The notes under the pieces were generated by a model. That model worked only from the letters and a program-made list of their open reading frames with translations, was not told where the DNA came from and made no database searches. From an uncultured bacterium (GTDB taxonomy: Bacteria > Omnitrophota > Omnitrophia > Omnitrophales > Aquincolibacteriaceae), in contig CAYPIR010000003.1 of NCBI GenBank assembly GCA_964410905.1, positions 79,986-143,985 of the forward strand: DNA of 64,000 bases, in the 5' to 3' direction. The translations under genes and the position numbers were made by a program. Each line of letters starts with the position of its first letter. The stretch's first letter is position 1. Shown in pieces: positions 9,122 through 22,647 of the stretch.

Positions 9122-9430
9122 TTATCGTTCAAATGGATCTTCCGCGCTAAGCTCCTGCGTAACAGGCTGATGCTCTATAAAAAGTTCATAAGCGCGCAAA
9201 ACTTCCTGTTGAACATAATCCTTAAACTCATTCGTAAGAGGATGCGCCACATCTCTGTAGTCATCGCCTTTCACTTTACGCGACGGCATTACAACAAAAA
9301 GACCTTTTGAACCATCTAAAATTTTCAAACCTCTGACAACAAAACATTGATCAAAAACAATATTGGCAAAAGCTAAAAGCTTACTGTCTCTGTGCGTTTT
9401 TGGGAAAATGCGAACTTCTGTAATCTTCAC
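9122..9430 (-). CDS. spoVG: septation protein SpoVG
   Basis: 102 aa. MKITEVRIFPK...KLLAFANIVFDQCFVVRGLKILDGSKGLFVVMPSRK...DVAHPL, a canonical SpoVG. Confidence 0.85.
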   Translation of the reverse strand: MKITEVRIFPKTHRDSKLLAFANIVFDQCFVVRGLKILDGSKGLFVVMPSRKVKGDDYRDVAHPLTNEFKDYVQQEVLRAYELFIEHQPVTQELSAEDPFER

Positions 9431-11694: not shown

Positions 11695-11771
<77 letters not shown>

Positions 11772-11783
11772 TCTACAATAAAA

Positions 11784-11818
11784 GGGGTTACGAATAAAAT
11801 CGTGACCCCTTTTTTTTC
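11784..11818 (+). terminator. rho-independent terminator after tRNA-Met
   Basis: Hairpin GGGGTTACG...CGTGACCCC followed by T8. Confidence 0.6.
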
Positions 11819-11883
11819 TTCATTTCCACGAAAATCTAACAAAAATCTAACAGACGTATTTTGCGAACAGATACAATATCGCT

Positions 11884-12858
11884 ATGAGTAATCCGAAACG
11901 GCAGCACTTTCTGCCACAGTTCTATCTGGAAGGTTTTGCATCCCAGCCCGTATCGTCCCCTCCAAAGTTCTGGTTCTATGATTTTCTGCAAGGCGCATGG
12001 GATGTCAGAACGCCCACGAACACCGCCGTTCGAAAACATTATTACACCGTCGAGAATCAAGAGAAGGAGAAGGATTACCAAGTTGAGAAATACTTCGCAG
12101 ACATTGAGGGTAAGGTGAAAGACCTCATGGTGCGAAAGCTGAATAAAGGGTTGAAACTAAAAGGGTCAGAGCATATTGCGACGCTGGCTGTTTTTGTGTA
12201 CTTAATGCGTTCACGAGTGCCTTATTTCAGAGACAAAATGGAAGCGTTCAATGTCGAAATTATTGAGCAGATGATGTCAATGATGCGTCAGCAAGCAAAA
12301 AAGAACCCCAATTATTTGAAGTGGTTAGAAGAAGACATGGAAAAGAAAACGGGGGAAAAAATGGGGTTGGATACTATGGACCCCGATGATTTTATGAATA
12401 CCGATAAGTTCAAGATTAAAATGCATCAGAATTTTCTCGTGGGGCTATGCCTTAGCCACATTGATAAAGCGGCGAGTATCATTTCTAGGATGAATTGGTC
12501 GATTATGCGAACAACGGAAGACGCCCCATTTATTACCTGTGATAACCCCTATTTTGAAATCAATCCTAAAAGCACGAGTTCTTGGGATAGAGCAGGCTTG
12601 CTAAATAAGGACATAGAAATATCACTTCCGCTTAGCTCAACGCTCTGTTTTTTCGCAAGTTGGACAAAAGCTCCCAGCTGGTTTAGTTTGGCTTCTCCGA
12701 GGCATGTTCATCAGTTCAATCTTCGGTCGATGATGGGCGCAAGAGAGTTTATTGTCGCCAGCACTAAACAATTCCCAGCGCATGAAAACTTGGAGAGAAA
12801 AACGAAAGCATTGAAGGAAGATTCAAAGTCTCCTCGAACCGCTATGACGAAGCCCTGA
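11884..12858 (+). CDS. DUF4238-family protein (candidate antiphage protein, Rst_DUF4238-like)
   Basis: 324 aa. The N-terminus MSNPKRQHFLPQFYLEGF matches the hallmark DUF4238 start (H[FY][VL]PQFYL..F). Confidence 0.65.
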   Translation: MSNPKRQHFLPQFYLEGFASQPVSSPPKFWFYDFLQGAWDVRTPTNTAVRKHYYTVENQEKEKDYQVEKYFADIEGKVKDLMVRKLNKGLKLKGSEHIATLAVFVYLMRSRVPYFRDKMEAFNVEIIEQMMSMMRQQAKKNPNYLKWLEEDMEKKTGEKMGLDTMDPDDFMNTDKFKIKMHQNFLVGLCLSHIDKAASIISRMNWSIMRTTEDAPFITCDNPYFEINPKSTSSWDRAGLLNKDIEISLPLSSTLCFFASWTKAPSWFSLASPRHVHQFNLRSMMGAREFIVASTKQFPAHENLERKTKALKEDSKSPRTAMTKP

Positions 12859-13083
12859 TAGCACGCATAGCCACGTTTCCAGCCCATTTTGGACCCAGCT
12901 CCAACACCTATCACCAAACGCAAAACATAAGCAAAACGAGGCTAAAACGAAGCGATAAAGCAATTAGAGCTGGAGGAAAGTCAGGAGGGGCTTGATTCAA
13001 GCTTAATTAAGCTTGCACTTAGTATGTTTGAGGAGATAATACTCTTGGGTTTCTAACCATCGAAAGCAGAAAGGGGTCCGCAT

Positions 13084-13356
13084 ATGTCTATCGAAATACC
13101 AATGTCTGAGCGTTCCAAAAAATACGGCTATGTTTTTTGGGGGAAAAGAGCCGATTCCCAAATCGAATCTCTGTTGAAAGAAAAACAAAAAATCAGTGTG
13201 AAATTTAATGGCGTAGACTTAGGAGAAAAAAATATAGATTGGAAGCATCGCCGTATCTCTCTTGGGTGGACGCAAACAAGAAGTTTGCCGAATAAAAAAG
13301 CGTCATTTTTTTTAACCGTATCAAAGGATAATTGGCTAAACATAAAAACGGTATGA
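13084..13356 (+). CDS. hypothetical small protein (90 aa) overlapping the methyltransferase start
   Basis: An ORF only. It overlaps the start of the downstream methyltransferase gene by 25 nt. No recognisable motif. Confidence 0.3.
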   Translation: MSIEIPMSERSKKYGYVFWGKRADSQIESLLKEKQKISVKFNGVDLGEKNIDWKHRRISLGWTQTRSLPNKKASFFLTVSKDNWLNIKTV

Positions 13357-15551
13357 ACGTTACAGAAAATGTAGAAATAGCCTGCCCCAAATTATTCCCT
13401 ATTCCTGAAGAATCCATACACCGCATTGTTGATGAAGGGATGCTTCAGTATGAAGCGTCAGTGTCTGGACTCAAGGAAAGGTATCGCAGGGGTGAGACTT
13501 CACATACTGGGCAAGTATGGTGGGCAAGACGACCGCATTCCGCCATGCGGGCGTTGGTTTTTGCAGCGTTAAGCCAAAACGTTTCAAACGAAGCCGTGCA
13601 AATCATGGCAACCCTTGCTAACTGCGAAGCTCCCTCAAATGAAGTCTTAAAACGTGCTGAGGAAATAATCTCTTCTGGTGGTGTTCCCAAATTATTAGAC
13701 ATATTCGGTGGTGGAGGAACCATAGCTTCAGAAGCTGCAAGGATTGGGGCGAAAGCGTATTCGTGTGATGTGAATGAATTAGCCTGCTACATCCAAAGAA
13801 CGAATCTTACATATTCGCAACTTTTGAAGCAGGATGAGCTTTTCGCCTTAATCCAAAATTCTGGAGAGCGCATATTAAATAACTTAACTCAACTAACGAG
13901 AGATGTCTTCCCTCCAGCAAAGAGCATGATTGGAGGCGGGGGTAACCTGTTTTCCGAAGATGTGCAACCACTTGCATATCTATGGAGCTACGCTCGGACA
14001 TGTTCTAAATGTCAGTATAAGTTCTTGCTAATAAAGCGTCCGTGGCTTTCCAAAAAGAGAGAGCGAAAAACCGCATTTAGATTGAAGGATGATTTTGAAT
14101 CAAATGCGCAAACAGTGGAGATAATCGAAACCGATGATTCTTACGAGTTTATAAGTAATTGGAGCGGGCGAAATGGCATTGTCACATGTCCTAAATGCAA
14201 AACTATTCATGATGGCAATAAAATATCTGACTTGGAAGATTGCTTAATAGGAATAATTGTTAAAACGAAAAAGGGTAAATCTTTTTTAACGCCTGAGGAA
14301 ACCAGCTATCAATGCCCTTCATTGAATTACATGAAAGAAAAGGAAGCCAAGCTGCTAGAGAGTCTTGGGAAAAATCTGCCCGAAACAAAACTGCCTAAAT
14401 GGTCTGGCATCGTAAACCCTGCGTTGTATGGCATAGAAGAGCATAAAGATTTATTAAATCAGAGACAAAGAATCTTCCTTTTAGCGTTAATGAAGGAGAT
14501 TAAAGACGAATACAAAGTAATCGTTAAGAAACATGGCGTAGGGATAGCTAAAAGCGTTGTAGCTTTTCTCTCAGGTCTTGTTGACCAAGCTGTTGATTGG
14601 AATTGCAGATTATCAATGTGGATTTCTCAAAATGAACAAGTTGGACGAGCGCTGTGCGGACCAGGGCTTCCAATGTATTGGGACTATGTCGAAATAGACG
14701 GTGTTAGAAAAGGACCCGCAAACTTATGGGACAAGTTGGAACGAATTAGCAAAGGTGCGAAATCAATAGGTGGTTTTACGCACAAACCAGAGGTGAGTTT
14801 AGCGCCTGCTCAAAAACTTCCTTTTCCTAAAAACACCTTTGATGCAGTGGTCACTGACCCTCCCTACTATGACAACATCTATTACAGTATTTTGGCTGAT
14901 TGTATTTATCCATGGAAAAGAATGCTTTTGGAGGATATTGAGGTAGAACTTTTTTCTAACAGAAAAACCTCCAGTGAAAAAGAGCTTGTTGCCTCCACAT
15001 TTCGGAGCGGAACACCCGAAAAGGCTCACGGCGATTATTGCGTCGAACTTGCAAAGGCAATCAATGAAGCGGAAAGGGTCTTAAAGAAGAATGGAGTTTT
15101 TTGCTTTATATATAGCCATAGCTCTTCGAAAGGATGGGATGCGTTGATTCAGGCGTTCAGACCCAGCAATTTTTTCGTAACGAGCGTTCAGCCGTTAAGC
15201 ATAGAACGAAAAGAAAGACCAAGGGCAATGACGTCCCTTGCCGTCAATACATGTTTAACTTTTGTTGCGCATAAATCTAATGTCAGGAAAGGCGAAGTCA
15301 CCATAAAAGAGATTTTGAAAAACATTGAAAGCATCCGTGATAATTTCATGAAGTCTTTAACTTCATCGGGGTGGGAAGAAAGCGACGTAGCATTAGCTAT
15401 TTTTGCAAATGGCATTGGATTGTTAACGAATTTCAATCAAGTTAAGCGGGGCGAGGAAATTATTTCCAACGAAACTTGTATAGAGGCTATCGAAGCGAAA
15501 ATCCAAGAAAAGTTTCCTGAATTTAAGATACAAAAAAGAGGCTCGCTCTAG
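13332..15551 (+). CDS. DNA methyltransferase, Zn-ribbon-containing (DUF1156/COG1743-like, DPPY motif)
   Basis: 739 aa. The N-terminal ...HTGQVWWARRPHSAMRALVFAAL resembles the DUF1156 WWARRP motif. Motif I-like FGGGGTIASEAARIGAKAYSCDVN, CxxC...CxxC Zn-ribbons (CSKCQYKF...CPKCKTIHDG) and the catalytic DPPYYDNIYYS are present. Confidence 0.7.
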   Translation: MAKHKNGMNVTENVEIACPKLFPIPEESIHRIVDEGMLQYEASVSGLKERYRRGETSHTGQVWWARRPHSAMRALVFAALSQNVSNEAVQIMATLANCEAPSNEVLKRAEEIISSGGVPKLLDIFGGGGTIASEAARIGAKAYSCDVNELACYIQRTNLTYSQLLKQDELFALIQNSGERILNNLTQLTRDVFPPAKSMIGGGGNLFSEDVQPLAYLWSYARTCSKCQYKFLLIKRPWLSKKRERKTAFRLKDDFESNAQTVEIIETDDSYEFISNWSGRNGIVTCPKCKTIHDGNKISDLEDCLIGIIVKTKKGKSFLTPEETSYQCPSLNYMKEKEAKLLESLGKNLPETKLPKWSGIVNPALYGIEEHKDLLNQRQRIFLLALMKEIKDEYKVIVKKHGVGIAKSVVAFLSGLVDQAVDWNCRLSMWISQNEQVGRALCGPGLPMYWDYVEIDGVRKGPANLWDKLERISKGAKSIGGFTHKPEVSLAPAQKLPFPKNTFDAVVTDPPYYDNIYYSILADCIYPWKRMLLEDIEVELFSNRKTSSEKELVASTFRSGTPEKAHGDYCVELAKAINEAERVLKKNGVFCFIYSHSSSKGWDALIQAFRPSNFFVTSVQPLSIERKERPRAMTSLAVNTCLTFVAHKSNVRKGEVTIKEILKNIESIRDNFMKSLTSSGWEESDVALAIFANGIGLLTNFNQVKRGEEIISNETCIEAIEAKIQEKFPEFKIQKRGSL

Positions 15552-16426
15552 CCCTTATTCCACTTAGTCTGCTTCTCTTTTATCGTGTCTATTTTTTGCT
15601 GAATTTTTTGTGAATCCAAAAGCATGGCTTGCAGCTCTTCTTTTGTCAGAGACAGAATTTTCTTTTTCTCTGTTTCCCAGTAGCCAGCCTCTTTGTTTGC
15701 TTGTGAGTTTGCATGCTGCCGAGCCTTTTCAATAAATCGCTCCAAATCTGATTTGCTTGCTCCGATGCAACGGCATAGAGCTTCCTCTACTTTTGACCAA
15801 TATAAATCGCCCGAAATCGCAGAGCCTGATTTTCGAATTTCAGAGGATGTGTTCCAAAGCGCTTCATAATTAAATTTATTTGGATTTTTTGTACTTAAAA
15901 TGAACTGCAAATGTATGTATGTCAAAAGCGTTGCATTTGTTTGCACTGCTTCTCTGTAAAGCCTCGAATCATTCCCAGGAAATTGACCGAGTGGACCGAC
16001 CAAGCAAGCGTAGTCCGCTGATGCTTTCTTTCTCCAGCCATCCAAAGGTTCTATTTTGTAATCTTTGGGATTTAGAGCTGTTCTGCTGAGCCTAAATGCT
16101 TTGCCATCCGCAACGATTCTGTAAGAGCCTTTCTTTTCAGCGACTACGTCGGCGTAATCCGCTCTTTCTTCGCACAATCTAGCTTCTAAACCCATTTGTT
16201 CGAGACATCCAAAAATCAGAATGTCGCAGTACTTTGCATACATTTTTTCTTCGGTTGAGTCATGGGAAAAGATTTCAGGTATAAATCCAGCTACTGCAAG
16301 ATGGTCGTTCAGTTGGCTAATAGATAACTCACCGAGGGAAGATAGCAGATTTTTAACACGTGTTGGAAAGTCCACATCGCCCACACAAGCCTTCCCAATA
16401 AACTCAACTATGTTTTCGTGGTTCAT
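15548..16426 (-). CDS. type II restriction endonuclease, HindIII family
   Basis: 292 aa. ...KYCDILIFG...ADVVAEKKGSYRIVADGKAFRLSRTALNPKDYKIEPLDGWR... aligns with HindIII (as recalled from memory: ...AGDIVLAKAF...GDVIALSKEFNYGLVADAKSFRLSRTAKNQKDFKVKALSEWR...), including the PD-(D/E)xK residues. Convergent with the methyltransferase, overlapping it by 4 nt. Confidence 0.65.
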   Translation of the reverse strand: MNHENIVEFIGKACVGDVDFPTRVKNLLSSLGELSISQLNDHLAVAGFIPEIFSHDSTEEKMYAKYCDILIFGCLEQMGLEARLCEERADYADVVAEKKGSYRIVADGKAFRLSRTALNPKDYKIEPLDGWRKKASADYACLVGPLGQFPGNDSRLYREAVQTNATLLTYIHLQFILSTKNPNKFNYEALWNTSSEIRKSGSAISGDLYWSKVEEALCRCIGASKSDLERFIEKARQHANSQANKEAGYWETEKKKILSLTKEELQAMLLDSQKIQQKIDTIKEKQTKWNKG

Positions 16427-16450: not shown

Positions 16451-17097
16451 TTAAATGGGGAGTTCTCTTGTGAGTATCGGCGCATGGTAGATTTTTTTAA
16501 CAATAATTGTCCCCACCTTCAGAACAAAGCTCCTCCGTTTTTGGTCATCGTTGACGCCGAATATAGGCACCCCAGAGATGATAGGACAGACGGATTTGAG
16601 TAATTCGCTCAGGTTTTTTTTGACGACTCTCGAATACAAGTGCCGAGCGTTACTCAGGGGTTTACTCGTTTTACTCAGCTTTCTTGGCGTACTTCCGAAT
16701 GTATAGGACATCTCGACGGAACACCTGAATGTAGCTGTAGCGGAGGAAGTCGGGATAGCTGAGTTTGCGATTTTTTCGCAAGGTGTTTTTGATGAGTCTC
16801 GAATACAGCTGGAAAGAGTTTCGCAAGAGGTTGACCGATTTTCGCAAGTGTTCTTGGCGTACTTCTGAAGGCATAGGACATGCCGACGGAACACCAGAAT
16901 GTTGTCGTAGCGGAGGACGTAGTAATCGCAAAAGATAGCAATTTCGGGGTGTCTGCTACGGTGGTGTCTCGAATACAGGGGAACGGAGTTGCTACGCTCG
17001 AAGCCCGTTTTTCTACGATGATAATGGATGCTCCGCCAACGATAAAAAACAGTCCGAGCTGAGACCAGTTTGATTTAATCCGCAGCACAAGCATCAC
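16451..17097 (-). pseudogene. possible frameshifted repeat-containing gene (two overlapping minus-strand ORFs encoding related peptide repeats)
   Basis: The ORFs 16675..17097 and 16451..16894 are in different frames. Each encodes a related ~34-aa segment (SATTTFWCSVGMSYAFRSTPRTLAKIGQPLAKLF versus SATATFRCSVEMSYTFGSTPRKLSKTSKPLSNAR). The first ORF starts with a hydrophobic, signal-like N-terminus. Confidence 0.3.
16611..17050. repeat. tandem direct repeat, ~169-170-bp unit, ~2.6 copies at ~85% identity
   Basis: Anchor 'tctcgaatacag' at 16628, 16797 and 16967. Anchor 'ttcttggcgtacttc' at 16681 and 16851. Confidence 0.8.
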
Positions 17098-17182: not shown

Positions 17183-18265
17183 ATGAACGAAGATGAAGCA
17201 AGAAGACTATTAACCCTGCCAATAACCCAAATTCAACGGCGCATCATGGAAAAGAACAAGACCGCAGCCGTTACGGCAGACCAAATGACGCTTCTTCTTG
17301 CGCTTGAGAAGGCTGGCAAGAACCGCAAGGGCATGAAAGATTGGCTTGAGCTTGGCATCAGCATGAACGCTCCGCCAGGCGAATACTACCTGACCTATCA
17401 GCACAAGGTTTCCATCTGGAAATCGGCTCTCCAGAAATACATCAGGCGTGGAATGACGGAAAAGGCATTGGGGGCAGGCAAAGTCCTGTTCAGGATGGCG
17501 CAGGAGCAAGCGGTACGACGAATGAAAATTATTATCACAGAGGACGTGTTCAGTGCGGTCGAAGCACTTCGGTTTTTCGATGGGATGATGGGACTCGATG
17601 ATTTTCTCTCCATCGTCAAAACGGTCGCTGATGCCCCAAAGGACAAGAGTTGTTGCGCCGTAGCAGACAAGCTGGCTGTAAGTGATTCGAGCTGGCTAAT
17701 GGCAAATTCTGAGCAATTACGGGGATATTTAGAAGCGAAAACGAAAAGCGATATTGTTTGCGCAGAAATAATGGGCTTGGTCTGGCAGAAAGAATGGGGG
17801 CGCATTCAAAACATCTTGGGGAATGACCCCGTGGTGCGCCAGTGCATCCAGCGAGCCTCCGAAGGCACATACTTCAAAGGCGATACCATCGTCCTCATGG
17901 TTGCTGCCATCCGCTACTTATACGGCGAACACCTGCTCAAGAACCTGAAACTGTCTCTGGTTGATGCGGATAGCGTTGCTGACATGAGGTTAAGTGAGAT
18001 TGATTGGTTTTGCACGGATTTCCACACGCCAGTTGGACGGGTCGTACTGGACGAGTTTTTAATAAGGCATCGGGGTATTGACCGTAGAGAACTTGAAACG
18101 TCTTGGTTTTTTTCAGAGAGCGCCAAGCTGAGCGACAATCAGGTAGCTGGCACTTGCGAAAAAGGGCAATTTAATCGGGAGCTGTGGATAAGTTACGGCA
18201 AAGAGATAGAAGGGATGGTGAAAGAATACCTTCTAAGCAGATTCAAGATAGCGCAATACGATTAG
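17183..18265 (+). CDS. hypothetical protein (360 aa), island cargo
   Basis: A long ORF with codon-like composition and no family I can name. Contains ...IDWFCTDFHTPVGRVVLDEF... Confidence 0.5.
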   Translation: MNEDEARRLLTLPITQIQRRIMEKNKTAAVTADQMTLLLALEKAGKNRKGMKDWLELGISMNAPPGEYYLTYQHKVSIWKSALQKYIRRGMTEKALGAGKVLFRMAQEQAVRRMKIIITEDVFSAVEALRFFDGMMGLDDFLSIVKTVADAPKDKSCCAVADKLAVSDSSWLMANSEQLRGYLEAKTKSDIVCAEIMGLVWQKEWGRIQNILGNDPVVRQCIQRASEGTYFKGDTIVLMVAAIRYLYGEHLLKNLKLSLVDADSVADMRLSEIDWFCTDFHTPVGRVVLDEFLIRHRGIDRRELETSWFFSESAKLSDNQVAGTCEKGQFNRELWISYGKEIEGMVKEYLLSRFKIAQYD

Positions 18266-18278
18266 GGGGTGGCTGAAG

Positions 18279-18905
18279 ATGAAGAGAACAGCGAAGGCGG
18301 TTATCTATGCCAGATGCAGTACGGACGAGAGCCGACAGGATACGGACGTTCAGTTGAAAGAGATTCGGCGATATGCGGAGGCATATGGATTTGATTATGA
18401 CGAGGTTTCAGAATACGGAAGCGGATACAAAGGCGAACAGCCCAAGCTCGACGAGGTTATCGAGAAAATTAAGCTCGGTCACTATTCCACCCTGCTCGTC
18501 TACTCTCTGGACAGGTTTTCCCGACAGCATCCCAAAAAGGTTAATGCTCTCTTGGACCAAATCGTCTACGACTACCACTGCCGATTCATTTCACTCAAGG
18601 AAGGCATTGATTCGACCAACGAAATGGTTTGGCACGTCATACGCCCGCTGTTCAGTTATTTTGCCAACGTCTTCTCCAAGCAGCTTAGCGAGAAAATCAG
18701 AGCTGGCATCAAGAACAAGAAGGAGAAAAACCTTTATCGGGGCGGTCGCCCTGAGAAACTCGTCAATCCTGAACGGCTTAAAGCAATTCTGACCGAACAT
18801 GGACGTCTTGCGTTACGCCCCCTGACCGTCCGATATAATGCCGACCTCTCCAAGAAGGAGCAAGTAAGCCACCAAACCATCCGTAAAGCCCTCGCCCTGC
18901 TGTAA
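18279..18905 (+). CDS. serine recombinase (resolvase/invertase family)
   Basis: 208 aa. AVIYARCSTDESRQDTDVQ places the catalytic Ser in the YAR.ST context. ...SLDRFSR... is also present, with a C-terminal HTH-like tail. Confidence 0.85.
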   Translation: MKRTAKAVIYARCSTDESRQDTDVQLKEIRRYAEAYGFDYDEVSEYGSGYKGEQPKLDEVIEKIKLGHYSTLLVYSLDRFSRQHPKKVNALLDQIVYDYHCRFISLKEGIDSTNEMVWHVIRPLFSYFANVFSKQLSEKIRAGIKNKKEKNLYRGGRPEKLVNPERLKAILTEHGRLALRPLTVRYNADLSKKEQVSHQTIRKALALL

Positions 18906-19036: not shown

Positions 19037-19780
19037 GTGGCGAAGAAAAAAAAGGCAAAACTTGCGAAAGAATTAGACCTGCTAATTCCTATGTATAAAT
19101 GGGAATTCTTACGTAGGAATAAGGATTACATCAAGGATTGTGAGAGCTGGACCAAACGCACTCGTAATCAATGGAACAAGAGAGAAATTGTTCTCGGTTA
19201 TAAGTTTAACGGCAAAATATCCGATTGGGGAAAGCCACACACTAAGGAAGCGATGACGGCAACGCTTGCTTACTGTCGTAGGCATTTCGAAGAATGGCAG
19301 TCTGAACGATTCGATTCATGGCGAAAGTACAAAGTAAAATGGGCAATAAACCTTCCTTTTAATCCTAACCTGTCGTACGTTCCATTTTTTATGGAGATAG
19401 CTCCTTTTAACATCATTACTGAACCACCCATGTCTAGCGATGGGGGGAATGATTTTCTTCTGGAAAAAGGGACGAGTTCTTTATTGCAAGTTAATTGGGA
19501 AGCTAACGTCGAAGACTTAAATCTTTCTTTCGAGAGAATCCTCCAGTTAAAAAAAATTCTTCTGAAAAACAAGCGGAAAGCCCACACATCCCATACTCAT
19601 TTTGATGTATATCACGATGCTTTAATTGTTTGGGACTTGAAGCAGGAAGAGAAAACTTATGCTGACATGCAGGATAGCAAATGGTTCACCCCCAACCAAA
19701 AGCGCTCTTCCACTAATATCCAAGACTGTTTCCAAGTTGCGGAGAAGCTAATCAAGGGAGGCTACAAGGAAATAAGGTAA
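19037..19780 (+). CDS. hypothetical protein (247 aa) with N-terminal WEFLRRN motif; possibly a mobile-element regulatory protein
   Basis: An ORF. The motif YKWEFLRRNKDY resembles a motif I associate with ICE regulatory proteins of the DUF6499/DUF2285 type. This is a tentative recollection only. Confidence 0.45.
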   Translation: MAKKKKAKLAKELDLLIPMYKWEFLRRNKDYIKDCESWTKRTRNQWNKREIVLGYKFNGKISDWGKPHTKEAMTATLAYCRRHFEEWQSERFDSWRKYKVKWAINLPFNPNLSYVPFFMEIAPFNIITEPPMSSDGGNDFLLEKGTSSLLQVNWEANVEDLNLSFERILQLKKILLKNKRKAHTSHTHFDVYHDALIVWDLKQEEKTYADMQDSKWFTPNQKRSSTNIQDCFQVAEKLIKGGYKEIR

Positions 19781-19858
19781 CCCCCCGTCGCTCCTTTAAT
19801 GAATTTCTTATTCGGCGAGTAAAATAGTCCCCACTTTAGAAAAACGTGGGGATTTTTT

Positions 19859-20197
19859 ATGCCTGAAGATGCGAAGAAAAATGATTTGCTTGTCACCGAA
19901 GTTGAAATAATTCCTCTTAAAACCTGCAACGGACACATCGGTTTTGCATCCTTCGTTCTGAACCACCAGATTTTTATTGGTAACATTGCGATTTATTCTC
20001 GCCCTAATGGTAGCGGGTTGAGATGCGTTTTCCCCACGAAGCGACTTCCGACAGGCGGAGCTATCCAGCTCGTTCATCCCATCACGAAAGAGGCTGGGCT
20101 TCTAATCGAAAAAGCGGTCTTTGAACAATACAAAAAGGTGGTCATAAAAAGTGGCGAAGAAAAAGAGAATCGAAATCTTTCTTGGCGACAAGGCTAA
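19859..20197 (+). CDS. SpoVG-family protein (island-borne paralog)
   Basis: 112 aa. ...LLVTEVEIIPLKTCNGHIGFASFVLNHQIFIGNIAIYSRPNGSGLRCVFPTKRLPTGGAIQLVHPI... follows the SpoVG pattern (V..I......AFASI.FD..FV...I.VI.G.NGLFV.MPS....G...D.AHPI). Confidence 0.6.
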   Translation: MPEDAKKNDLLVTEVEIIPLKTCNGHIGFASFVLNHQIFIGNIAIYSRPNGSGLRCVFPTKRLPTGGAIQLVHPITKEAGLLIEKAVFEQYKKVVIKSGEEKENRNLSWRQG

Positions 20198-21047
20198 GAG
20201 AAATAACTTTATTATGATTTCACGGAAAGTGAGGGCGCATGTCCTTGAGGGGCAGCTTTCTCCTTTCGACCTGCTCGTTGCTGTTTGGACTGGGATTTTA
20301 TTTGAATATGGCTGCAACGAATGTGTTACGAATTATTGTAAAATCGCTGACGGATTAGAGAAGTTGGCTGATGCTGACAAAATTCGTCAATCTCTCAAGA
20401 GGTTAAAGAAGTCGAAAATCATAAATTTCAAAACAAGACAGGGGGAAAAATACACACCCTTTTACATATCAAATTTATACCCTGCCAAAACTAAGAAATC
20501 CTCCGAAGTTAAAACAAGTTCTCCGAAGTTTAAGGAACGCCTAATCCCTTCTGGCGCAGGCAGATGCGATAATCCTGTCCCTCTGATTTCCGAAGTTCCT
20601 ACTGACCAGAAAGAGAAGAGAGGAAGAGATGAGATTAAAGAAGAGATAAGAAGGCATCCTCTTTTCTCTCGTTTTTCTGAAGCGCAATGGCAAGAAATTT
20701 TCTCATCCTTCCCGCTCGATTTTTTAATCCGCAAACTCACTAAATGGATTAAGGCTCCCAAGAAGGCGGAATTCTCCTTTTCTTTTGATGGGCTTATGAA
20801 GCTTTTGAGAGAGGACTGGCAAAAAGCAAAGCCAGCTCGCTCGTATAATCGTGACAACGAAGAATTCGCTGCCAATCAAAAGAAATGGGCGGAGCAAGGT
20901 TCATGCCCTCCGCCGAAAGATTTTTTAGATTTGAAAGACCGCCTCAAGCAAGAATCCCGATTGTCCTCGCCAGATAGCCCGAATTTATCTTCGTCAGCAC
21001 CAACTTCAACAACAGCAATCCCAAAAGGAGAAAAGAAAAATGAATGA
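20151..21047 (+). CDS. hypothetical protein (298 aa), basic/low-complexity C-terminus; start uncertain
   Basis: An ORF. Overlaps the upstream gene by 47 nt, so the internal Met at ~20211 is a possible start. No recognised family; a possible replication or regulatory function is speculation. Confidence 0.4.
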   Translation: MAKKKRIEIFLGDKAKRNNFIMISRKVRAHVLEGQLSPFDLLVAVWTGILFEYGCNECVTNYCKIADGLEKLADADKIRQSLKRLKKSKIINFKTRQGEKYTPFYISNLYPAKTKKSSEVKTSSPKFKERLIPSGAGRCDNPVPLISEVPTDQKEKRGRDEIKEEIRRHPLFSRFSEAQWQEIFSSFPLDFLIRKLTKWIKAPKKAEFSFSFDGLMKLLREDWQKAKPARSYNRDNEEFAANQKKWAEQGSCPPPKDFLDLKDRLKQESRLSSPDSPNLSSSAPTSTTAIPKGEKKNE

Positions 21048-21278: not shown

Positions 21279-22478
21279 ATGCTCGGCTCAATTAGAACAA
21301 GGTTCTCTAAGCGTGACCCGAAAAAGCCTCTCTATTATCTCTGTTATAGGATTGGGAAAAAACAGGTGTGGGAGGCTGCGGGTTCGCATAAAAAAACAGC
21401 TGAGAGAAAATTAACAGAAACAATCAATGCGCTCAATGACGGGACGTACGTTAAGGTCAAAGAAATATCATTTGCTGAATTCGCTCGTGAATGGCTTCAG
21501 ATTTATGCGTCAGTACATGTCAAGGAATCCACTTTCCGCTCCTATCGAAGCGTTATTACGCAGCATCTGATTCCAGACTTGGGGCATTACCCTGTGACAT
21601 TGATTACCCCTCACGTTGTTCAACAGTTTCTCTCTGCGGTTCTTAAAAAAACTACTAAACGAAAAAAACCGACGACTACAAAGACCGCAAACAATATGCT
21701 CAAGCTAATGAAAACCGTCTTCAAATATGCGTGCAAATGGGGTTACATGAGGTTTAATCCTGCCGAAGACATTGAATCATTTCCCGTTTCACACGAAGAA
21801 ATGCATTTTCTTGAGCCAGAAGACATCAGGGCGTTGCTTAATGCCTCTCTTGAGCCGTTCCGAACGCTTTTTTTGACAGCAGTGATGACGGGAATGAGAC
21901 GTGGTGAGCTGCTTGCGCTGCAATGGGGGGATATTGACTGGAACAGCAGCAGGATTTTTGTTCGGCGGACTCTTTTTTGGTTCAGTTGCGAAGAAGCCAG
22001 TGAAAGAAAGCATGATGAGCGATGGAAGTTTGGAACACCCAAAACAAAGAACTCTTATCGAACGATACCAATGTCACCTGAATTGAAAAAGGCGCTTCAG
22101 ATTCACCACATTAAATCGCCAGTCAACGAACATGGCTTGGTTTTTTGCAGCAAAGAAGGAAAGCCGATTGACCCCGATAATATGGTGAAGCGTGAATTTC
22201 ATTACGCTCTCACGACAGCAGGATTGCGGAGGATTCGTTTTCATGACTTACGGCATACGTGCGCAGCCGTGCTAATTGCAGCTGACTTTAATCCAAAATT
22301 TATTCAAATGTTTCTGGGACATGCATCTATCCAAACGACAATGGACCGCTATGGTCATCTTTTCAAAATTGATAATGAAAAAGTGGGTGACCGAATCGAC
22401 CAAACGGTTTTTGAAAAATCTAACAAAAATCTAACAGAATCAGCCGAGCCATCAAAATCAACCCAAATGCAAGATTGA
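21279..22478 (+). CDS. tyrosine-type site-specific integrase
   Basis: 399 aa. The C-terminal catalytic region shows ...FHDLRHTCAAVLIAAD...LGHASIQTTMDRYGHL, the R..H.R.Y pattern. Confidence 0.9.
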   Translation: MLGSIRTRFSKRDPKKPLYYLCYRIGKKQVWEAAGSHKKTAERKLTETINALNDGTYVKVKEISFAEFAREWLQIYASVHVKESTFRSYRSVITQHLIPDLGHYPVTLITPHVVQQFLSAVLKKTTKRKKPTTTKTANNMLKLMKTVFKYACKWGYMRFNPAEDIESFPVSHEEMHFLEPEDIRALLNASLEPFRTLFLTAVMTGMRRGELLALQWGDIDWNSSRIFVRRTLFWFSCEEASERKHDERWKFGTPKTKNSYRTIPMSPELKKALQIHHIKSPVNEHGLVFCSKEGKPIDPDNMVKREFHYALTTAGLRRIRFHDLRHTCAAVLIAADFNPKFIQMFLGHASIQTTMDRYGHLFKIDNEKVGDRIDQTVFEKSNKNLTESAEPSKSTQMQD

Positions 22479-22554: not shown

Positions 22555-22599
22555 CTCATAACCCAAAGGTCACTGGTTCAAATCCAGTCCCCGCTACCA
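22555..22599 (+). repeat. attR: displaced 3' half of tRNA-Met
   Basis: ctcataacccaaaggtcActggttcaaatccagTccccgctacca compared with the tRNA copy (G and C at the two capitalised positions). The base change preserves T-stem pairing as A:U. Confidence 0.75.
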
Positions 22600-22611
22600 G
22601 TTACGAGAAAA

Positions 22612-22647
22612 GGGGTTGCGTAAAAAAACGCAGCCCCTTTATAATTT
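22612..22647 (+). terminator. terminator-like hairpin after attR
   Basis: GGGGTTGCG...CGCAGCCCC followed by a T-rich run. Mirrors the terminator after the intact tRNA. Confidence 0.4.

Follow-up and report, generated by a model that had tools for sequence, protein, structure and literature searches.

The gene at positions 11884-12858 (+ strand) of the window, by which we mean the whole 64,000-nt stretch of DNA analysed, poses the question of whether a single DUF4238 protein, encoded at the edge of an integrated island in an Omnitrophota genome, serves as an antiphage protein without the help of a partner. The open reading frame specifies 324 residues from an ATG start codon, the stop codon being included in the coordinates. 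Its N-terminus reads MSNPKRQHFLPQFYLEGF, exactly the stretch that the original prediction had singled out as the hallmark of DUF4238, and the Pfam model PF14022 matched the protein with an E value of 3.2e-40 and a score of 138.8 bits (gathering cut-off, 27 bits). This match, which extends from residue 6 to residue 295 and covers profile positions 1-280 of 281, is far above chance. A Pfam scan found no second domain, so the protein is single-domain and within the family range of about 250-340 residues. PHROG 29785, to which no function is assigned, also matched (8e-14); no NCBIfam model did. The protein keeps the motif H-x-[LV]-P-Q-x-Y-L-x-x-F together with E68, E75, R111-x-P113, F-I-T-x-D220-x-P222, P249 and N279, and it retains at full length every residue that is invariant in our alignment of 64 DUF4238 sequences (A2), most of which are only 20-30% identical: H8, P11, F18, E75, D220 and P222. 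The open reading frame is an intact, full-length member of the DUF4238 family.

Rst_DUF4238 is the only member of the family to have been tested on its own as a system. Rousset et al. 2022 reported that this single DUF4238 protein, taken from a P2 hotspot, gave strong resistance to T7 and blocked one phage of the eight challenged, and they stated that its molecular function was unknown, in agreement with the earlier description of the family as mechanistically uncharacterised. The original prediction had placed Rst_DUF4238 in phage-satellite hotspots; the report of a single-gene system stands, whereas the satellite origin does not, the hotspot being that of a P2 phage. The insert of the construct, pFR101, came from a P2-like prophage of E. 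coli TA007, and the start of the insert given in the supplement of Rousset et al. 2022 encodes MSVARHHHFLSQCYLKGF..., of which the first 66 residues are identical to gp11 of Escherichia phage pro483. Protein gp11 was also the only phage record matched by the window protein (tblastn, 23.7% identity, 92% coverage, E 2e-9), and pairwise BLASTP of the two proteins gave 24% identity over about 300 residues (1-297 of the window protein) with an E value of 3e-16. The gp11 gene sits between gene A and the portal gene of pro483; on the P2 map, tin and old occupy this site.

The resemblance between the two proteins is broad but distant. Both belong to the same Pfam family over their full length and are of similar size (324 versus 309 residues), and both keep H8, F18, E68, E75, D220, P222, P249 and N279. 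They have in common the N-terminal pattern H-x-x-[PS]-Q-x-Y-L-x-G-F, the E68/E75 pair and the [TS]-[CS]-D-N-P motif; P11 of the window protein is a serine in the Rst_DUF4238 archetype. Most of the residues conserved in the 64-sequence alignment persist in gp11. The system model of PADLOC (PDLC03000, DUF4238-Pers) matched the window protein over positions 1-294 of 309 with an E value of 2.1e-15, as expected from the proposed likeness to single-gene Rst_DUF4238, but the match is weak: 55 bits versus the 725.5 bits that gp11 scores over all 309 positions. By sequence, therefore, the window protein genuinely belongs to the family and is a distant relative of the sole tested member. Each is the product of a single gene lacking a partner and is carried by an integrated mobile element, at a site where the cargo varies, although the carriers differ, being a small Omnitrophota tRNA-Met integrase island here and a P2 phage of E. 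coli for Rst_DUF4238. Given the 24% identity, the large gap in HMM score and the metabolic surroundings of some homologues described below, the word "candidate" in the original claim of an antiphage protein was apt.

Elsewhere, a DUF4238 domain is present in one validated E. coli defence system of the TIR type, and the family has been reported in hotspots of the PAPI-1 island (PMC12629846). Among the papers covered by our literature search, DUF4238 appeared in no title or abstract; the text matches to "PF14022" proved to be Plasmodium gene identifiers and were discarded.

The setting of the gene bears directly on its likely role. The intact tRNA-Met(CAT) gene that served as the integration target (11695-11771, + strand; ARAGORN, and 62.8 bits with the Rfam tRNA model) stands at one end of an island of about 10.8 kb. 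The 3' part of this tRNA and its terminator form the attL copy of a direct repeat (11727-11812, + strand), which starts in the anticodon loop and is 85% identical to the sequence at 22555-22640 (+ strand). The latter, located by a repeat search, is attR, a displaced tRNA-Met 3' half followed by a terminator-like hairpin, and just inside it sits the gene of a 399-residue tyrosine integrase (21279-22478, + strand). Because the tRNA-Met gene, the 85% repeat of its 3' half and the adjoining tyrosine integrase are all present, the reading of attL and of a tRNA-integrated island holds. The DUF4238 gene is thus the first gene after attL, as proposed, and is followed by orf90, a methyltransferase gene, an endonuclease gene, a 750-nt gap, orf360, a serine recombinase gene, orf247, a SpoVG-like gene, orf298 and the integrase gene. 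With a restriction-modification (R-M) pair on board, the compact cluster on a tRNA-integrated element that had been put forward is also there, as a block of defence-type cargo. The host was assigned to the uncultured Omnitrophota from GatB of the flanking chromosome, whose best named relatives, at no more than 77% identity, are in Candidatus Omnitrophota MAGs (metagenome-assembled genomes). When the tRNA-Met sequence was read by eye it displayed initiator-type features, namely a C/U mismatch at 1:72 and an anticodon stem closed by three G-C pairs (GGG/CCC), and the island may therefore occupy an initiator tRNA gene.

A strong intrinsic terminator (11780-11813, + strand; 14-bp stem plus T run) lies 3' of the tRNA and insulates the DUF4238 gene from tRNA transcription. 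Between this terminator and the gene is the left copy (11831-11854, + strand) of an exact 24-nt repeat, AAAATCTAACAAAAATCTAACAGA, which consists of two AAAATCTAACA units and is found 19 nt past the terminator and 30 nt 5' of the DUF4238 start codon. The right copy (22415-22438) is inside the 3' end of the integrase coding sequence, 117 nt short of attR. After excision the circle would have its attP core flanked by the two copies, which are therefore candidate arm-type sites for the recombinase; another possibility is that the left copy overlaps the promoter region of the DUF4238 gene. No repeat of this type of at least 12 nt was found in six related islands. A sigma-70 scan 5' of the DUF4238 gene gave no convincing promoter. 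The hexamer TACAAT occurs at 11872-11877, 6 nt before the ATG, and we speculate that the mRNA might be leaderless.

To place the gene within the element we compared the island with its relatives. Integrases 33-52% identical to that of the window were kept at 80 metagenomic loci, most of which, where a tRNA was nearby, lay at tRNA-Met, and six loci share the geometry of the window, with a tRNA-Met gene and then an integrase gene, both on the + strand. Three of these islands (L100, L111 and L142), each about 5.5 kb, have an orf247-like gene directly after the tRNA, followed by a SpoVG-like gene, the gene of an ~800-residue protein, small open reading frames and the integrase gene. The ~800-residue protein has the NrS-1 polymerase helix-bundle domain and is of primase-polymerase type (L100, 6821-9226; L111, 6636-9044; L142, 3658-6030). 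The other islands hold additional genes: three uncharacterised ones between the tRNA and the orf247-like gene in L110, a pair encoding HTH and IrrE/CapP-like proteins plus other unannotated genes in L083, and the gene of a 710-residue SEC-C-motif protein in L096. Hence, the interval between the tRNA and the orf247-like gene is either empty or filled with other genes in the related islands, and none of them carries DUF4238 or the R-M system.

The genes common to the window and the related islands are the orf247-like, SpoVG-like and integrase genes. The backbone of the window island comprises orf247, which has a weak Trans_reg_dom match, the SpoVG-like gene and orf298 (19037-21047, + strand), the first two having homologues in the related tRNA-Met islands. 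The SpoVG-like gene (19859-20197) is 38-49% identical to its counterparts in these islands and so is a conserved backbone gene of the element family; its identity to the chromosomal SpoVG (9122-9430) is 23%. As the backbone is shared and the genes on the attL side differ between relatives, the segment 11884-18905 of the window is read as cargo placed between attL and the backbone, and on this comparison the DUF4238 gene, together with the R-M genes, orf360 and the serine recombinase gene, is cargo rather than backbone. At the cargo/backbone junction are orf360, which had no match in Pfam, NCBIfam, PHROGs or PADLOC, and the gene of the small serine recombinase (17183-18905 for the two, + strand; PF00239 Resolvase). 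The recombinase, of 208 residues, starts 14 nt after orf360 and exactly at the junction, and it might have introduced the cargo block. The 750-nt non-coding gap between the endonuclease gene and orf360 is occupied by degenerate direct repeats of about 170 nt (16627-16990), two copies of which are 76% identical and are accompanied by weaker flanking copies; Tandem Repeats Finder did not report them and Rfam gave no match in the gap.

Where the relatives carry the NrS-1-like protein the window island has an unrelated open reading frame of 298 codons, and neither Pfam, NCBIfam and PHROGs searches nor the comparison with the relatives detected a primase or helicase in the island, which may be replication-defective. 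As it has no recognisable primase-polymerase we do not call it a satellite: a replication module and helper-hijacking genes of the P4-like or PICI-like kind were not found, and the PHROGs search for capsid or packaging functions returned only a portal match at chance level. In its architecture the element resembles the P2, P4-like and genomic-island hotspots (Rousset et al. 2022; PMC12629846) in having a conserved backbone and a fixed slot that holds alternating, unrelated cargo, and DUF4238 is a type of cargo found both here and in the known defence hotspots. The element differs from the P2 and P4-like cases in being neither a phage nor a demonstrated satellite, and the cargo of the related islands, unlike that of known defence hotspots, mostly lacks a recognisable defence annotation.

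We surveyed the neighbourhoods of 45 DUF4238 loci in species-representative genomes, taking three genes on each side. The 126 and 124 flanking proteins represented 123 and 113 distinct Pfam families, respectively, and since no family occurred more than twice there is no conserved partner and no conserved synteny. The closest relatives of the window protein tell the same story. The window clade is tiny, consisting of one 92%-identical protein from another MAG, two proteins at 65-66% and one at 38%, and the genes downstream of these relatives are entirely different, with no methyltransferase gene. The 92% relative follows hrcA-grpE-dnaJ-gpsA whereas the window gene follows hisG and the tRNA-Met gene, and the 65-66% relatives, which have RelE-like, RHH and XRE genes around them, showed no flank similarity and no conserved small partner open reading frame. 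Taken with the 45 loci, these flanks support, on genomic grounds, a protein that would need no obligate partner gene in order to work.

The company that DUF4238 genes do keep is often that of conflict genes. Neighbours included components of Type I and Type II R-M systems, a complete Gabija pair, AbiTii, reverse transcriptases, a TIR protein, a Schlafen/AlbA_2 protein, RadC and a DUF927 primase. One homologue is in an integrative and conjugative element (ICE) and adjoins AbiTii and Druantia DruA. On the E. coli plasmid pSE11-1 (locus L072; NC_011419.1, 19492-22480) two divergent DUF4238 paralogues of 374 and 333 residues lie downstream of a HEPN nuclease gene. This pair (WP_000785695 and WP_000386705), an example of those found on IncI-type conjugative plasmids of Enterobacteriaceae, parallels the window gene in family, in residence on a mobile element and in having a defence-type neighbour, the HEPN nuclease there and the R-M system here. 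It is unlike the window gene in being two paralogues, and the identity to the window protein is low (about 24% by tblastn; 21% and 16% in a multiple alignment). Neither paralogue matches the DUF4238-Pers model of PADLOC. Several other homologues are lone genes amid metabolic genes with no defence or mobile-element marker nearby. Thus homologues are not consistently found in housekeeping contexts, as phage, ICE, plasmid and defence settings were seen alongside some metabolic ones. Our qualitative impression is of a mobile, patchily distributed single gene whose neighbourhoods are often, though not always, related to conflict.

We consider that the window protein is probably a stand-alone effector directed against phages or other mobile elements. 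For this particular protein defence is the most likely function by extension from Rst_DUF4238, the distantly related protein encoded by P2-like prophages of E. coli. It would act as a single-polypeptide antiphage (or broader anti-mobile element) effector. Our best guess at its activity would be a divalent-metal-dependent hydrolase of nucleic acid or nucleotide, which would either destroy a phage-specific substrate or be switched on by a phage component and so cause abortive infection.

A benefit to the mobile element of another sort is the alternative that fares best, and we consider it unlikely. The protein might form an addiction or toxin module, might exclude plasmids or islands that compete with the element, or might act as an anti-defence factor. 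DUF4238 homologues occur on 641 plasmids, 591 of which are conjugative, and are present in ICEs; the close relatives at 65-66% identity lie among toxin-antitoxin-like genes; the window gene is itself on an integrative island; and the tested member blocked only one of eight phages. However, that phage resistance is the only experimental datum for the family, and the lack of any conserved cognate small partner leaves no antitoxin-like neighbour. Plasmid leading regions are the kind of place known for anti-defence genes, but the IncI plasmid copies are in an accessory region near the HEPN nuclease gene and not obviously in the leading region.

The gene could also be an accessory of the adjoining R-M system. 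As predicted, an R-M pair lies downstream of the DUF4238 gene. The Type II DNA methyltransferase (DUF1156 / N6_N4_Mtase; 13332-15551, + strand), for which the ATG at 13353 is the likely start, scored 632 bits with the PADLOC MTase_II model, and the restriction endonuclease, encoded by a convergent gene (15548-16426, - strand), matched PF09518 RE_HindIII at 6.5e-65 and PADLOC REase_II at 3.1e-48. A HindIII-family endonuclease with an adjoining methyltransferase constitutes a HindIII-family Type II R-M system. Ahead of the methyltransferase gene is orf90 (13084-13356, + strand), which encodes 90 residues with no family match. Its stop codon overlaps the methyltransferase ATG (ATGA at 13353-13356), so orf90 is probably translationally coupled; it probably belongs to the R-M unit and may be its controller. 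We also noted that orf90 is weakly similar to the orf247-like backbone protein encoded by L110, the match falling in the N-terminal part of the latter (36% over 58 residues, E 2e-4). The 225-nt spacer between the DUF4238 gene and the orf90-methyltransferase operon contains a 16-nt palindrome, AAGCTTAATTAAGCTT, at 12999-13014, which includes two HindIII-type sites and is possibly a control element of the R-M system. In the 64-kb window AAGCTT is about 3-fold under-represented, with 14 occurrences observed versus 41.2 +/- 5.5 expected, a depletion that fits, without proving, AAGCTT specificity and long exposure to such a system.

Co-transcription with orf90 and the methyltransferase gene would make DUF4238 a third component or a regulator of R-M. 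The shared orientation of the three genes, the absence of a detected intrinsic terminator from the spacer, the palindrome within it and the recurrence of R-M components near a few other DUF4238 genes are all compatible with such an arrangement. We nevertheless hold it to be improbable: the closest relatives have no methyltransferase downstream, neither the DUF1156 nor the HindIII family recurs among the 250 neighbours surveyed, the tested member acts alone, and a 225-nt gap separates the DUF4238 gene from orf90, which is itself joined to the methyltransferase gene by the ATGA overlap. That DUF4238 might be a cellular protein unrelated to conflict (for example, a metabolic or regulatory enzyme) hitch-hiking on the island is a still fainter prospect, suggested by the homologues embedded amid ordinary metabolic genes, the very large family and its unknown mechanism, and opposed by the want of any conserved synteny, the near-identical copies in different contexts, the occurrence of family members on phages, plasmids and ICEs, the existence of a validated defence member and the status of the gene as cargo in this island family.

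Returning to the stand-alone effector, we asked what its conserved residues and predicted structure suggest about its activity. A profile built from 16 relatives retrieved 25,352 representatives of clusters made at 50% identity when the threshold was E<=1e-3, and 14,115 when it was E<=1e-10; the best 150 of the 25,352 are nearly all single-domain proteins of about 300-370 residues. So large a family need not be functionally uniform. In addition to the invariant residues, at least 90% conservation was seen in the 64-sequence alignment at P4, L10, Q12-L15, A48, E68, R111-P113, M203, F216, T218, G238, P249, E277, N279 and R281. The AlphaFold model of the window protein is confident (pLDDT 91.5, pTM 0.87) and depicts a single, compact unit of alpha/beta type that contains a helical insert. 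Foldseek gave no match for the model among solved structures (best PDB E value 0.48, TM about 0.1), and a profile search of PDB sequences returned nothing below an E value of 0.3. As no link in fold or sequence to characterised enzymes emerged, conservation is the sole basis for the idea of an enzyme. A soluble stand-alone protein of about 300 residues in which His, Glu and Asp residues are invariant and Arg, Asn, Thr and Tyr residues are conserved suggests one, although we regard this as an even call. H8, E68/E75, R111, D220 and N279 have the look of a catalytic centre of the acid-base or metal-binding kind. Within a predicted helix (66-84), the spacing of E68 and E75 (i, i+7) probably puts both on the same face. 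Any specific chemistry, including the hydrolase suggested above, is appreciably more doubtful than enzyme activity itself. A reading of D220...E245-x-S as a PD-(D/E)xK motif was rejected, as the validated archetype does not conserve E245.

The window gene is plausibly a distant new addition to a catalogued family of single-gene defence systems, which is an ordinary finding for the field. DUF4238 is a catalogued defence protein of unsolved mechanism, and it is on this question that the size of the family and a fold with no solved relative by Foldseek bear. The Omnitrophota member provides a second, distant sequence to set beside the E. coli protein, and also a short list of strongly conserved residues for mutation, H8, E68, E75, R111, D220 and N279; the mechanism is no more testable with the Omnitrophota member than with the E. 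coli protein. It also shows, in the candidate phylum Omnitrophota, an arrangement known from elsewhere, in which a mobile backbone has a variable slot for defence genes.

A bolder reading joins these observations. It would have an undescribed tRNA-Met island family of Omnitrophota and other uncultured bacteria, with a backbone of an orf247-like regulator, a SpoVG-like protein, an NrS-1-type primase-polymerase and a tyrosine integrase, bearing a defence hotspot on its attL side in which the DUF4238 clade contributes an enzyme of novel fold. We advance this combination tentatively and think it rather unlikely to hold in all its parts. If it were true, the island family would be a functional analogue of the P4-like satellites, and as the fold is unlike any solved structure the chemistry of this divergent DUF4238 clade would be a new defence mechanism.

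Two minor observations were made on members of the family. A permissive Pfam scan of the 64 aligned sequences gave weak matches to PF12236 Head-tail_con in 11 (best E value 6.4e-4) and to DUF7364 in 6; the window protein had neither. PF12236 is the T7-type portal/connector family, and the matches are curious since the tested DUF4238 protein blocks T7, but they probably represent a shared chance match. Finally, one protein of 529 residues (P0053) joins an integrase Arm DNA-binding domain (PF13356) to DUF4238 and could be either a real fusion or an artefact of gene calling.
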